DNA from: Escherichia coli
GTDB taxonomy: Bacteria > Pseudomonadota > Gammaproteobacteria > Enterobacterales > Enterobacteriaceae
Assembly (NCBI RefSeq): GCF_009931435.1
Contig: NZ_CP043414.1
Strand: one strand, 5' to 3'
Length of the DNA stretch: 64,000 nt
A model generated the notes under the pieces. It worked only from the letters and a program-made list of their open reading frames with translations, was not told where the DNA came from and searched no databases. Both the position numbers and the translations under genes were made by a program. Below, piece by piece: positions 16,553 through 16,925 of this stretch (position 1 is the stretch's first letter; every line of letters begins with the position of its first letter).

Positions 16553-16651
16553 TTAGTCTGTTATCCCAAAAACTCGCGGATTGTCGCGAGTGAAAATTGT
16601 TTCTTATTGCTCACTAAGCACTATCCGTTTGTTATTTCGCCATCGGATATG

Positions 16652-16670
16652 TAATTGAGAATCATTCAAT
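16652..16670. promoter_or_regulatory. Candidate Fur box in divergent receptor/ABC promoter region
   Basis: taattgagaatcattcaat resembles the Fur consensus GATAATGATAATCATTATC; about 100 bp upstream of the receptor start. Confidence 0.45.
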
Positions 16671-16925
16671 CACGCGGTAATGTAGTAGTAAATGAGAAAT
16701 AACAAAAAATTGCTACATGTGTTTTTATGAAAGGTTTATACAATTTAATTGTTTTTAATTTATTAATATTTAATGTTTTTATTTTTATGTGCAAAAATAT
16801 TTTACCTGTTATTTACCTTGTTTTTGTGTGGCTTTTAACTGCTTGACTACTACATTTTGTGGCATCAAACTCTCAAAGGAGAATGAGTTTTATTTTTGTT
16901 TGTCTTTGATTAAGTTGGCGTACAC

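Follow-up and report, generated by a model that had tools for sequence, protein, structure and literature searches.

The 373-bp gap between fitA and fitB in this Escherichia coli DNA is, with high confidence, the bidirectional promoter-operator region of the fit iron-uptake locus, which is shut by Fur at two sites, and the SD-like motif and mini-ORF in front of fitB are most likely just the second of these sites, Fur box 2. All positions refer to the window analysed, a stretch of 64,000 nucleotides from contig NZ_CP043414.1. The fit promoter, its control by Fur and FitR, and the Fur ChIP-exo peaks have all been published previously, and the system is already known. The present additions are modest: both Fur operators and both predicted promoters are placed to the base pair, a swap of the fitB start is described, and a candidate for the FitR operator is put forward.

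The fit locus was recognized from gene content, gene order and chromosomal position. It occupies about 14411-21604 of the window and is inserted between parE and ygiN. The ORFs and their NCBIfam matches gave a layout in which a TonB-dependent receptor is divergent from an ATPase, two FecCD permeases, a periplasmic binding protein and an RpiR-type regulator:

14411..16552, minus strand: fitA, TonB-dependent siderophore receptor of 713 aa (ORF; TIGR01783, E=7e-112; orthologue labelled fitA in Sakai)
16926..17735, plus strand: fitB, ABC transporter ATPase of 269 aa (ORF with a GTG start)
17732-18715, plus strand: fitC, permease
ending at 19761, plus strand: fitD, permease
ending at 20719, plus strand: fitE, binding protein
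from 20716 to the operon end at 21604, plus strand: fitR

The same layout was present in Sakai, CFT073, 042 and EDL933, and in the Sakai annotation the genes are called fitA, fitC, fitD, fitE and fitR, with fitB labelled fepC_2. The locus is reportedly also treated in a study by Ouyang and Isaacson from 2006. The region occurred at at least 95% identity in 1870 of 5426 complete E. coli genomes, and with a 901-bp query other E. coli were 97.9-99.8% identical to the window. Locus, genes, parE neighbour and intergenic region (373 bp here, a 347-bp probe in the paper) are the same as those of the published E. coli fit promoter (Ouyang & Isaacson; Gao et al. 2023). In contrast to the published locus, fitR is frameshifted in the window: an extra A at 21364 leads to loss of the frame after about residue 214 of 295, and an intact fitR autorepressor is absent. 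Either a true mutation or an error in the sequence may account for the extra A.

The gap itself (16553-16925) has a GC content of about 23-25%, against about 45-55% in the flanks. The first-pass annotation had described it as an AT-rich divergent control region between the receptor gene and the ABC operon, which is borne out by its size, its low GC content and the published bidirectional promoter. The fit intergenic DNA drove lacZ in both directions and was induced by iron deprivation (Ouyang & Isaacson 2008, PMC2593036). In the same work the promoter was found to be repressed by Fur and FitR, fitA went up 23-fold in a fur mutant, FitR gel-shifted the 347-bp intergenic fragment, and definition of the operators was named as future work (PMC2593036). 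The operator sequences undefined there, that is the Fur boxes, together with the promoter hexamers and an inverted repeat, were placed by the present mapping. A phylogenetic footprint of the gap showed drift in the central region and the spacers, against conservation of the two Fur boxes, of the -35+ACTACA block at each promoter and of the 17-nt spacing. An Rfam search of 16300-17200 at a permissive E-value returned chance-level matches and no significant family; a Leu_leader match (16.2 bits, E=1.8) and a snoRNA match (E=7.4) were rejected as chance. Other small ORFs of 21-55 aa in the gap were also discarded, as each either lies in spacer that is not conserved or runs into the fitA leader, Fur box 2 or the beginning of fitB.

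Three positions in the gap are relevant for Fur:

16651..16669, unstranded: Fur box 1, GTAATTGAGAATCATTCAA, the candidate of the first-pass annotation (12/19 to consensus, conservation, ChIP-exo)
16879..16897, unstranded: Fur box 2, GAGAATGAGTTTTATTTTT (13/19 to consensus, conservation, ChIP-exo)
16767..16779, unstranded: an additional Fur ChIP-exo peak, weaker than the others, within the AT-rich spacer, in 042 only (P110, 042 coordinates 3539695-3539707)

The dyad that had been noted earlier as Fur-box-like, TAATTGAGAATCATTCAAT, is located at 16652-16670; scored as a 19-mer, it fits the consensus GATAATGATAATCATTATC best at 16651-16669, with 12/19 matches. Fur box 2, a slightly better match right on the SD motif and the mini-ORF start, had been overlooked. 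The Fur-consensus score was rejected as evidence because such matches are expected by chance in this base composition: of dinucleotide-preserving shuffles of the gap, 61% contained at least one site with at least 12/19 matches and 28% contained at least two. Fur box 1 is therefore accepted on the basis of conservation and published ChIP-exo data, not of its score.

Fur ChIP-exo under iron-replete conditions gave peaks P123 and P124 in CFT073, P109, P110 and P111 in 042, and P117 and P118 in Sakai (Gao et al. 2023, PMC10164565). These three strains are relatives of the source strain, 97.9% identical over the 901-bp query. When the published peaks were mapped onto the window, CFT073 P124, 042 P111 and Sakai P118 fell at 16662-16674, at Fur box 1, and CFT073 P123, 042 P109 and Sakai P117 at 16872-16887, at Fur box 2. 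Between the peaks and the two best-scoring sites the distance is 7-10 bp, which compares with 3-17 bp for the control peaks at exbB and yqjH and their boxes; the box at exbB, a validated one, likewise reaches only 12-13/19. The Sakai peak coordinates refer to NC_002695.1, and an inferred +128-bp shift to version.2 was applied. This shift was accepted since it makes the yqjH peak intergenic and since the unshifted CFT073 and 042 records concur. Fur occupancy is thus established at both boxes in three strains by the published data mapped here. Fur binding, the check proposed in the first-pass annotation, was found, and the dyad was confirmed as a Fur site by the peaks and its near-invariance. 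The fur deletion mutants of 042, Sakai and CFT073 were derepressed on both sides of the gap, with log2 fold changes of 8.1, 3.5 and 3.9 for fitA and of 5.9, 1.8 and 3.3 for fitB (PMC10164565). The weak third site has 11/19 matches at 16765-16787, and the spacer around it is poorly conserved between genera.

At Fur box 1 the block TGTAATTGAGAATCATTCAA showed no variation across 21 aligned loci, and it is likewise unchanged in every other genus sampled except Tatumella. Each of the 46 complete enterobacterial orthologous loci has the core GAATGA and the T-rich tract of Fur box 2, apart from single-base changes. About 228 bp separate the two sites, and each promoter has one of them. At the predicted fitA promoter, Fur box 1 lies over the -10 and the start of transcription; at the predicted fitB promoter, Fur box 2 spans about +1 to +20 and includes the ATG of the mini-ORF. 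The two promoters are predicted as follows:

16664..16692, minus strand: fitA promoter, -35 TTTACT (plus strand 16687-16692), N17, -10 TTGAAT (16664-16669), from sequence and invariance
16843..16871, plus strand: fitB promoter, -35 TTGACT (16843-16848), N17, -10 CAAACT (16866-16871), from cross-genus conservation

A generic promoter scan gave no hit in the gap, including none at the fitB promoter at a stricter threshold, and the promoters were therefore derived from cross-genus conservation. The -35 TTGACT of fitB and its 17-nt spacing are invariant and the spacer sequence varies; TTGACT-N17-CAnnAT holds this exact spacing in 46 of 46 loci. The -10 of fitB occurs as CAAACT, CAAAAT, CAATAT, CATGAT, CAAGAT or CAGAAT; the A at position 2 and the T at position 6 never change. 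Both predicted -10 elements are poor, CAAACT matching at 3 of 6 positions and TTGAAT lacking A at position 2. From this geometry transcription of fitA is predicted to start near 16657 and that of fitB at 16877-16879, about 5 nt before the mini-ORF ATG. Among the start sites listed by Cappable-seq for EDL933 none lies in the gap (4004647-4005019 in that genome); sites listed in the locus are near the gene starts of fitR and of the permease gene fitD. No usable primary transcriptome of uropathogenic E. coli turned up in a literature search.

In a different promoter assignment, the invariant GAGAAT (16879-16884) would be the true -10, transcription would start near 16891, the SD motif and the ATG would not be transcribed, and Fur box 2 would overlap the -10. 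GAGAAT agrees with TATAAT at 4 of 6 positions, the A at position 2 and the T at position 6 among them, and is more conserved than CAAACT. Fur boxes often overlap the -10, and Fur box 1 does so at the predicted fitA promoter. However, no conserved -35 is found 16-18 nt 5' of GAGAAT, where the variable spacer sits, and it is TTGACT-N17-CAnnAT that holds its spacing throughout the orthologous loci. We consider this assignment unlikely and retain CAAACT as the predicted -10 of fitB.

In front of fitB two features had attracted attention:

16876..16881, plus strand: SD-like AAGGAG at the predicted transcription start and the left edge of Fur box 2 (anti-SD pairing -8.7 kcal/mol, 0-1 nt from the ATG)
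16883..16909, plus strand: mini-ORF MSFIFVCL of 8 codons, from ATG 16883 to TGA 16907-16909 (read from sequence)

The earlier description of a strong SD before an 8-codon ORF was correct in that motif (aaaggag at 16875-16881) and ORF exist, but not in their spacing. The gap from the end of AGGAG at 16881 to the ATG at 16883 is 1 nt, and within the normal window of -20 to -4 the pairing for the mini-ORF is only -2.8 kcal/mol. Functional SD distances are about 4-9 nt. Furthermore, AAGGAG is carried by CFT073, 042 and the window and not by O157: 34 of 53 loci have AAAGAG (7-mer AAAAGAG) in its place, among them those of E. coli O157 Sakai and EDL933. The mini-ORF is not conserved as a reading frame. 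In orthologues it ranges from 8 to more than 80 codons in mixed frames, its stop falls somewhere between 21 nt ahead of the start of fitB and 204 nt downstream of that start, within the gene, and conservation is confined to the first 6 codons, those within the Fur box. The ATG in Fur box 2 is present in all orthologues, and because it is universal, conservation alone cannot separate a Fur box from a start codon. Since the Fur consensus GATAATGAT contains an ATG, and since the AAGGAG at the start of transcription is one form of a polymorphic site that otherwise reads AAAGAG, we do not regard the mini-ORF as a translated leader. Motif and mini-ORF most likely arise incidentally from Fur box 2 and the T-rich leader and do not constitute a gene.

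The SD of fitB itself is weak. Its best pairing (UAAG..GG) is -4.0 kcal/mol, a value close to the median when 34 long ORFs of the window are taken as a rough reference set, so that the first-pass description of a GTG lacking an obvious SD stands as regards weakness, not as regards any abnormality. GTG 16926 is the RefSeq/PGAP start in five other E. coli genomes. The fitB leader, about 48 nt from the predicted transcription start, is U-rich and unstructured; it folds no better than shuffles (z-score +1.45). No terminator-like site was found in 16860-16926, and the leader holds no alternative terminator/antiterminator structures for attenuation. The single terminator-like site of the scan is inside fitA and irrelevant here. 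Within the Escherichia/Enterobacter lineage, conservation extends over the 16 nt 5' of the GTG (TTAAGTTGGCGTWCAC), and GTGGC is invariant. Klebsiella, Citrobacter, Kosakonia and others instead have GCAGGAG-N4-6-ATG(CCA CAG), whose ATG precedes the homologous GTG by 12 nt; for Klebsiella the gene caller gave a FitB of 273 aa. The Escherichia/Enterobacter lineage has lost this canonical SD and ATG and probably uses a weak-SD GTG.

A translational coupling or leader-peptide mechanism, as suggested in the first-pass annotation, would take the mini-ORF as a real uORF whose ribosomes stop 16 nt before GTG 16926 and re-initiate, offsetting the weak fitB SD. The strong pairing of AAGGAG with the anti-SD and an ATG in every orthologue are in line with this, as is the position of the mini-ORF stop in E. 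coli and a few further loci, 11-21 nt short of the GTG; a compensating mechanism is conceivable given the loss of the canonical SD and ATG. The proposal nevertheless fails on several counts. The 1-nt SD-ATG gap is far under the functional range, O157 Sakai, EDL933 and most other genera have AAAAGAG, and length, stop and frame vary among orthologues. The conserved promoter geometry also predicts a transcript with about 5 nt ahead of the ATG, and the sequence is fully explained as a Fur operator with its own ChIP-exo peak. We regard a functional uORF as very improbable. Equally remote is a narrower version, in which E. coli lineages bearing AAGGAG use a transcript from further upstream in the spacer and a recently evolved uORF-coupling device that offsets the lost GCAGGAG-ATG; if true, the start inside the Fur operator would mean that transcriptional and translational control are physically superimposed. 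That the ATPase start is mis-assigned, FitB beginning at another codon with its own SD, is least probable of all: a GTG with weak SD is unusual and the GCAGGAG-preceded ATG of Klebsiella, Citrobacter and Kosakonia lies 12 nt upstream, but in the window TAA 16911-16913 closes the frame, the intervening codons GTT GGC GTA CAC include no start, the next downstream candidates, CTG (16953) and ATT, are poor and would cut the conserved strand before Walker A, the FecE profile aligns from residue 10, all RefSeq annotations share the GTG within its invariant GTGGC, and as the only usable start between the TAA and the Walker A region it gives an N-terminal length that fits FecE/FepC homologues.

A repeat search of the gap revealed an inverted repeat with 14-nt arms, 93% complementary and 150 nt apart, of which each arm is fused to a predicted -35:

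16679..16692, unstranded: left arm, AATGTAGTAGTAAA, fused to the fitA -35, candidate FitR operator half
16843..16856, unstranded: right arm, TTGACTACTACATT, fused to the fitB -35, candidate FitR operator half

Within the arms the pair TGTAGTAG/CTACTACA was found in 46 of 46 complete enterobacterial orthologous loci, with the starts of the 8-mers 165-189 bp apart. A gene for FitR, with HTH_6 and SIS domains, also occurs in the Klebsiella locus that carries the inverted repeat. Judged from this conservation and the co-occurrence with fitR, the invariant TGTAGTAG...CTACTACA pair is probably the FitR operator, and its position on both -35 boxes makes it a testable candidate. A third copy of TGTAGTAG near the 3' end of fitA in some genera, with none in the window, was dismissed as a coding coincidence.

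On the other side of the gap the predicted fitA leader contains two hairpins:

16572..16591, minus strand: HP2, ACUCGCG, a 6-nt loop and CGCGAGU (read from sequence)
16622..16649, minus strand: HP1, outer stem AUCCG/CGGAU, adjoining the predicted 5' end (RNAalifold and single-sequence folds)

HP2 is followed by a U-run (plus strand 16568-16571) and then an SD-like GGGA (16564-16567), and in orthologues its stem changes in sequence and keeps its self-complementarity. RNAalifold gave 5 pairs in the consensus of HP1, and at 3 of these both bases change in a compensatory way (GC/AU, UA/CG and CG/UA). RNAalifold recovered HP1 and not HP2 because indels misalign the HP2 region.

These data suggest the following mechanism. 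The gap would contain two divergent sigma-70 promoters, with putative hexamers TTTACT-N17-TTGAAT for fitA and TTGACT-N17-CAAACT for fitB, each with a Fur operator over its -10/start region (16651-16669 and 16879-16897). When iron is plentiful, Fe2+-Fur on both boxes blocks initiation both ways; when iron is scarce, both promoters fire. FitR, of the RpiR family, is a second, local repressor that binds the same fragment. The fitB mRNA would be translated from GTG 16926 on a short, U-rich, unstructured leader with a weak SD.

The arrangement resembles known iron-regulated promoters. In E. coli K-12 the fepA-fes, fepB-entC and fepD-entS regions are AT-rich and bidirectional, with Fur boxes over the -10/-35 or the start of each promoter. 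The fit gap would be comparable to these, being AT-rich, bidirectional and Fur-controlled, with a receptor or transport gene on one side and an operon on the other. It has one Fur site per promoter, unlike an arrangement with one shared central box, and unlike the K-12 siderophore promoters it has an extra RpiR-type local repressor. FitR is similar to the RpiR/MurR/HexR-family local repressors with palindromic operators in having HTH_6 and SIS domains and in binding intergenic DNA, and the likeness extends to the conserved inverted motif that overlaps both -35 elements. In contrast to the palindromes of that family, the halves at fit are 165-189 bp apart rather than adjacent, so that two separate sites or looping would be needed. 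The mini-ORF shares with leader peptides and uORFs (tnaC, pheL, ermCL, termination-reinitiation) that a very short ORF precedes the first gene of an operon and stops near its start. Unlike leaders of the tnaC, pheL and ermCL type it has no functional SD spacing and no conserved peptide, length or stop; terminator/antiterminator hairpins are absent, and the ORF starts about 5 nt from the predicted 5' end.

For the search for small ORFs in AT-rich iron-regulated promoters the fit region is a caution, as a Fur operator can mimic an SD with a mini-ORF. Since about one third of complete E. coli genomes carry fit, including ExPEC and O157 strains, the operator maps given here are of some practical use.

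The 373 bases at 16553-16925 are flanked by two divergent open reading frames and have a GC content of 23.5-25% over 16600-16899, against about 45-55% on either side. The NCBIfam assignments of the surrounding genes were:

14411..16552, minus strand: fitA, 713 aa, TonB-dependent siderophore receptor
16926..17735, plus strand: fitB, 269 aa with a GTG start, FecE/FepC-like ATPase
second and third plus-strand reading frames: FecCD permeases
fourth plus-strand reading frame: periplasmic binding protein
20716-21604, plus strand: fitR, the fifth reading frame, MurR/RpiR regulator

The parE gene lies directly upstream of these genes, and a 901-bp query spanning the gap was found with at least 95% identity in 1870 of 5426 complete E. 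coli genomes, the locus sitting between parE and ygiN in every case. The same genes are annotated as fitA, fitC, fitD, fitE and fitR in O157:H7 Sakai. Because NCBIfam roles, the parE/ygiN position and the Sakai annotation agree, the locus is the fit iron-transport locus of Ouyang and Isaacson, a system that is already known.

The intergenic DNA was earlier cloned in both orientations before lacZ and named the 'bidirectional fit promoter'; iron deprivation induced both directions and purified FitR shifted a 347-bp intergenic fragment, the exact Fur and FitR sites being left by the authors for future work (PMC2593036). A Fur pan-regulon study counted the fit genes among the accessory members of the Fur regulon in strains 042, Sakai and CFT073, with log2 fold changes in the respective fur deletion mutants of 8.1, 3.5 and 3.9 for fitA and 5.9, 1.8 and 3.3 for fitB (PMC10164565). 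The iron-replete Fur ChIP-exo peaks reported in the gap were P123 (3607758-70) and P124 (3607968-80) in CFT073, P109 (3539587-99), P110 (3539695-707) and P111 (3539800-12) in 042, and P117 (3917060-72) and P118 (3917271-83) in Sakai (PMC10164565).

Scanning the gap with the Fur consensus GATAATGATAATCATTATC at a threshold of at least 12/19 matches gave two sites:

16651-16669: Fur box 1, GTAATTGAGAATCATTCAA, 12/19 matches
16879-16897: Fur box 2, GAGAATGAGTTTTATTTTT, 13/19 matches

Box 1 is the Fur-box-like dyad of the first-pass annotation, whose string TAATTGAGAATCATTCAAT is indeed present at 16652-16670. The scores alone mean little because they are at chance level: when the gap was shuffled with its dinucleotides preserved, at least one site at this threshold appeared in 61% of the shuffles and two in 28%. 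The validated exbB Fur box also scores 12-13/19. Both boxes are nevertheless real, as established by phylogenetic footprinting and by the ChIP-exo peaks that coincide with them in three strains. The CFT073 and 042 peaks were mapped on records of the accession versions used in the pan-regulon study (PMC10164565). The outer peaks of both strains fall at 16662-16674 and 16872-16887. Their offset from the two top-scoring consensus sites is 7-10 bp; as a calibration, the published 13-bp peaks are offset by 17 bp at the exbB Fur box and by 3-13 bp at the yqjH boxes. Sakai peak coordinates refer to NC_002695.1 and the record used for mapping was version.2, presumably the longer by about 128 bp. Adding 128 to the coordinates puts P117 and P118 on the same two places; in support of this offset, the yqjH peak then leaves the gene and falls in the yqjH-yqjI gap.

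Other Fur peaks were located as well. The third 042 peak (P110) maps to 16767-16779 in a poorly conserved AT-rich spacer, where 11/19 consensus matches and a partly conserved TTAA...TTGAAAATAA stretch lie nearby. A published intragenic fitA peak maps to about 15058-15070 in three strains (CFT073 P125, 042 P112, Sakai P120) and a further one, in Sakai only, to about 16062 (P119); no consensus match of at least 11/19 was found beneath either.

A FitB scan of species-representative genomes yielded 47 enterobacterial loci (Escherichia, Enterobacter, Lelliottia, Silvania, Huaxiibacter, Phytobacter, Kosakonia, Citrobacter, Klebsiella, Raoultella, Erwinia and Tatumella). The gap was aligned for 21 loci, all with divergent fitA. 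The central AT-rich spacer drifts freely, and four blocks are conserved, three without any change:

invariant: TGTAATTGAGAATCATTCAA, Fur box 1
invariant: ATGTAGTAGTAAATG
invariant: CTTGACTACTACA
conserved, with single-base differences in a few loci: AGAGAATGAGTTTTATTTTTATTT, Fur box 2

More distant genera carry the same four blocks. With the published bidirectional promoter and the Fur peaks in three strains, this conservation bears out the earlier proposal of a divergent Fur-controlled region.

The gap further contains an inverted repeat fused to two -35 hexamers, and a promoter could be predicted in each direction:

16679-16692 and 16843-16856: arms of a 14-nt inverted repeat, AATGTAGTAGTAAA / TTGACTACTACATT
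16843-16848, plus strand: predicted fitB -35, TTGACT, conserved and followed by exactly 17 variable bases
16687-16692 and 16664-16669, minus strand: predicted fitA promoter, -35 TTTACT, 17 bases, -10 TTGAAT, in mirror arrangement

The hexamer following the 17 bases on the fitB side is CAAACT, CAAAAT, CAATAT, CATGAT, CAAGAT or CAGAAT; positions 2 and 6 are A and T throughout. This TTGACT-N17-hexamer pattern appears to be the signature of a sigma-70 promoter. The predicted fitB transcription start, 16877-16879, coincides with the left edge of Fur box 2 and lies beneath the ChIP-exo peak. Fur box 1 covers the predicted fitA -10 and start; the fitA promoter is less certain because position 2 of TTGAAT is not the A normally seen there. 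A generic promoter scan found no promoter in the gap, and a search for experimentally mapped transcription starts yielded none. An invariant GAGAAT might instead be the fitB -10, which would leave the mini-ORF discussed below wholly outside the transcript, but it lacks a conserved -35. In Enterobacter, Lelliottia and related loci (L007-L023) a palindrome, CCCTGG, 6-7 nt, CAGGG, then TGTTT, lies about 30-50 nt upstream of TTGACT (aligning to 16815-16835), close to the fitB -35 on its upstream side; in E. coli the palindrome has degenerated. It might serve as a terminator-like insulator or as a further operator.

The core 8-mers of the inverted pair, TGTAGTAG and CTACTACA, are exact reverse complements and occur, with starts 165-189 bp apart, in 46/46 enterobacterial loci extending far enough; the pair is missing from distant Marinobacter/Halomonas-type homologues. 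Its conservation far exceeds the need of a -35 hexamer, and the Klebsiella operon also ends in fitR (HTH_6+SIS). From these patterns the pair is the best candidate FitR operator, possibly with looping. The window's fitR carries an extra A at 21364 (GGGGAATCC vs GGGGATCC in two other E. coli), which shifts the frame after about residue 214/295 and truncates the SIS domain. In the closest RefSeq relative, strain 2020CK-00188 (L001; identity 99.8% for the 901-bp query and 99.5% for the 7.4-kb locus), it is fitE that is annotated as frameshifted, a G-run being one base shorter than the window's (L001 ~9880-9890; window 20186). That different fit genes are broken in very close relatives suggests locus decay or homopolymer sequencing errors.

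The first-pass annotation had also proposed a leader peptide or translational coupling, based on a strong SD before an 8-codon ORF. The elements are all present (aaaggag 16875-16881, ATG 16883 to TGA 16909, MSFIFVCL, and GTG 16926), but we rejected a translated leader on five grounds. A working SD-to-start gap is 4-9 nt, whereas here a single nucleotide separates the end of AGGAG (16881) from the ATG (16883), so the spacing is not functional: the -8.7 kcal/mol duplex leaves 0-1 nt, and pairing within -20..-4 reaches only -2.8 kcal/mol. AAGGAG is unconserved, reading AAAAGAG in 34/53 loci including E. coli O157 Sakai and EDL933, and O157 strains with AAAAGAG still have Fur peaks and fitB derepression in a fur mutant. 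The ORF is conserved only over its first six codons, inside Fur box 2; orthologous versions run from 8 to >80 codons and stop from 21 nt before to 204 nt past the fitB start, in differing frames. The predicted 5' end of the fitB mRNA would lie only about 5 nt before the ATG. Finally, in the fitB leader a terminator scan and an RNA-family search found neither a terminator nor a known RNA family, and there was no excess structure (z = +1.45 vs shuffles). An ATG-led mini-ORF is to be expected here as a by-product, since the Fur consensus GATAATGAT itself includes ATG and stop codons come early in T-rich DNA.

A mis-assigned ATPase start can be dismissed: TAA at 16911-16913 closes the frame and is followed by GTT GGC GTA CAC GTG, making GTG 16926 the first possible start, and RefSeq uses the same GTG in every genome examined. 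The FecE profile alignment begins at FitB residue 10, and the distance to Walker A presumably matches FepC-like proteins. The start was said to have no obvious SD; its best pairing is UAAG..GG, 6 nt upstream, at -4.0 kcal/mol. Such pairing is weak, yet a rough sample of 34 long window ORFs has a median close to it. The leader is U-rich and open, a type that favours S1-assisted initiation. A longer, GC-rich fitB leader occurs in Klebsiella, Raoultella, Citrobacter, Kosakonia, Phytobacter, Erwinia and Tatumella; the addition measures about 50 nt in Klebsiella, Citrobacter, Kosakonia, Raoultella, Erwinia and Tatumella (e.g. L039 2950-2990). In these genera (Klebsiella, Citrobacter etc.; L024-L051) it ends GCAGGAG-N4-6-ATG CCA CAG nnn GTG, so that the E. 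coli GTG corresponds to codon 5, and the 273-aa Klebsiella gene call fits the upstream ATG. At the corresponding place, window 16911-16928, Escherichia, Enterobacter and Lelliottia lack the extra leader, GCAGGAG and ATG CCA CAG, and begin at GTG. The comparison indicates that the Escherichia/Enterobacter lineage lost a canonical SD and ATG and now uses the internal GTG, which on this alignment evidence is a derived, weaker start.

On the other side, fitA has a predicted leader of about 105 nt, in which the 16564-16649 region (minus strand) contains two hairpins with compensatory changes across genera:

16622-16649, minus strand: HP1, fitA leader hairpin
16572-16591, minus strand: HP2, GC-rich and terminator-like, then a U-run, then the SD

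HP2 may act as an attenuator or stabiliser, or as the target of an sRNA; the fitA leader matched no Rfam family. Several Enterobacter loci (L007, L008, L010 and others; AAGGGCAATGAC) have an upstream ATG after AAGGG, in frame with fitA, which would add about 19 residues before the FitA signal peptide; E. coli has ATA there.

The first-pass observation is thus partly confirmed, and the additions to the known system are small: base-level placement of operators and promoters, a candidate FitR operator, and a lineage-specific start-codon change. If the fitR frameshift is real, this strain would be without its local repressor, with fit under Fur alone.
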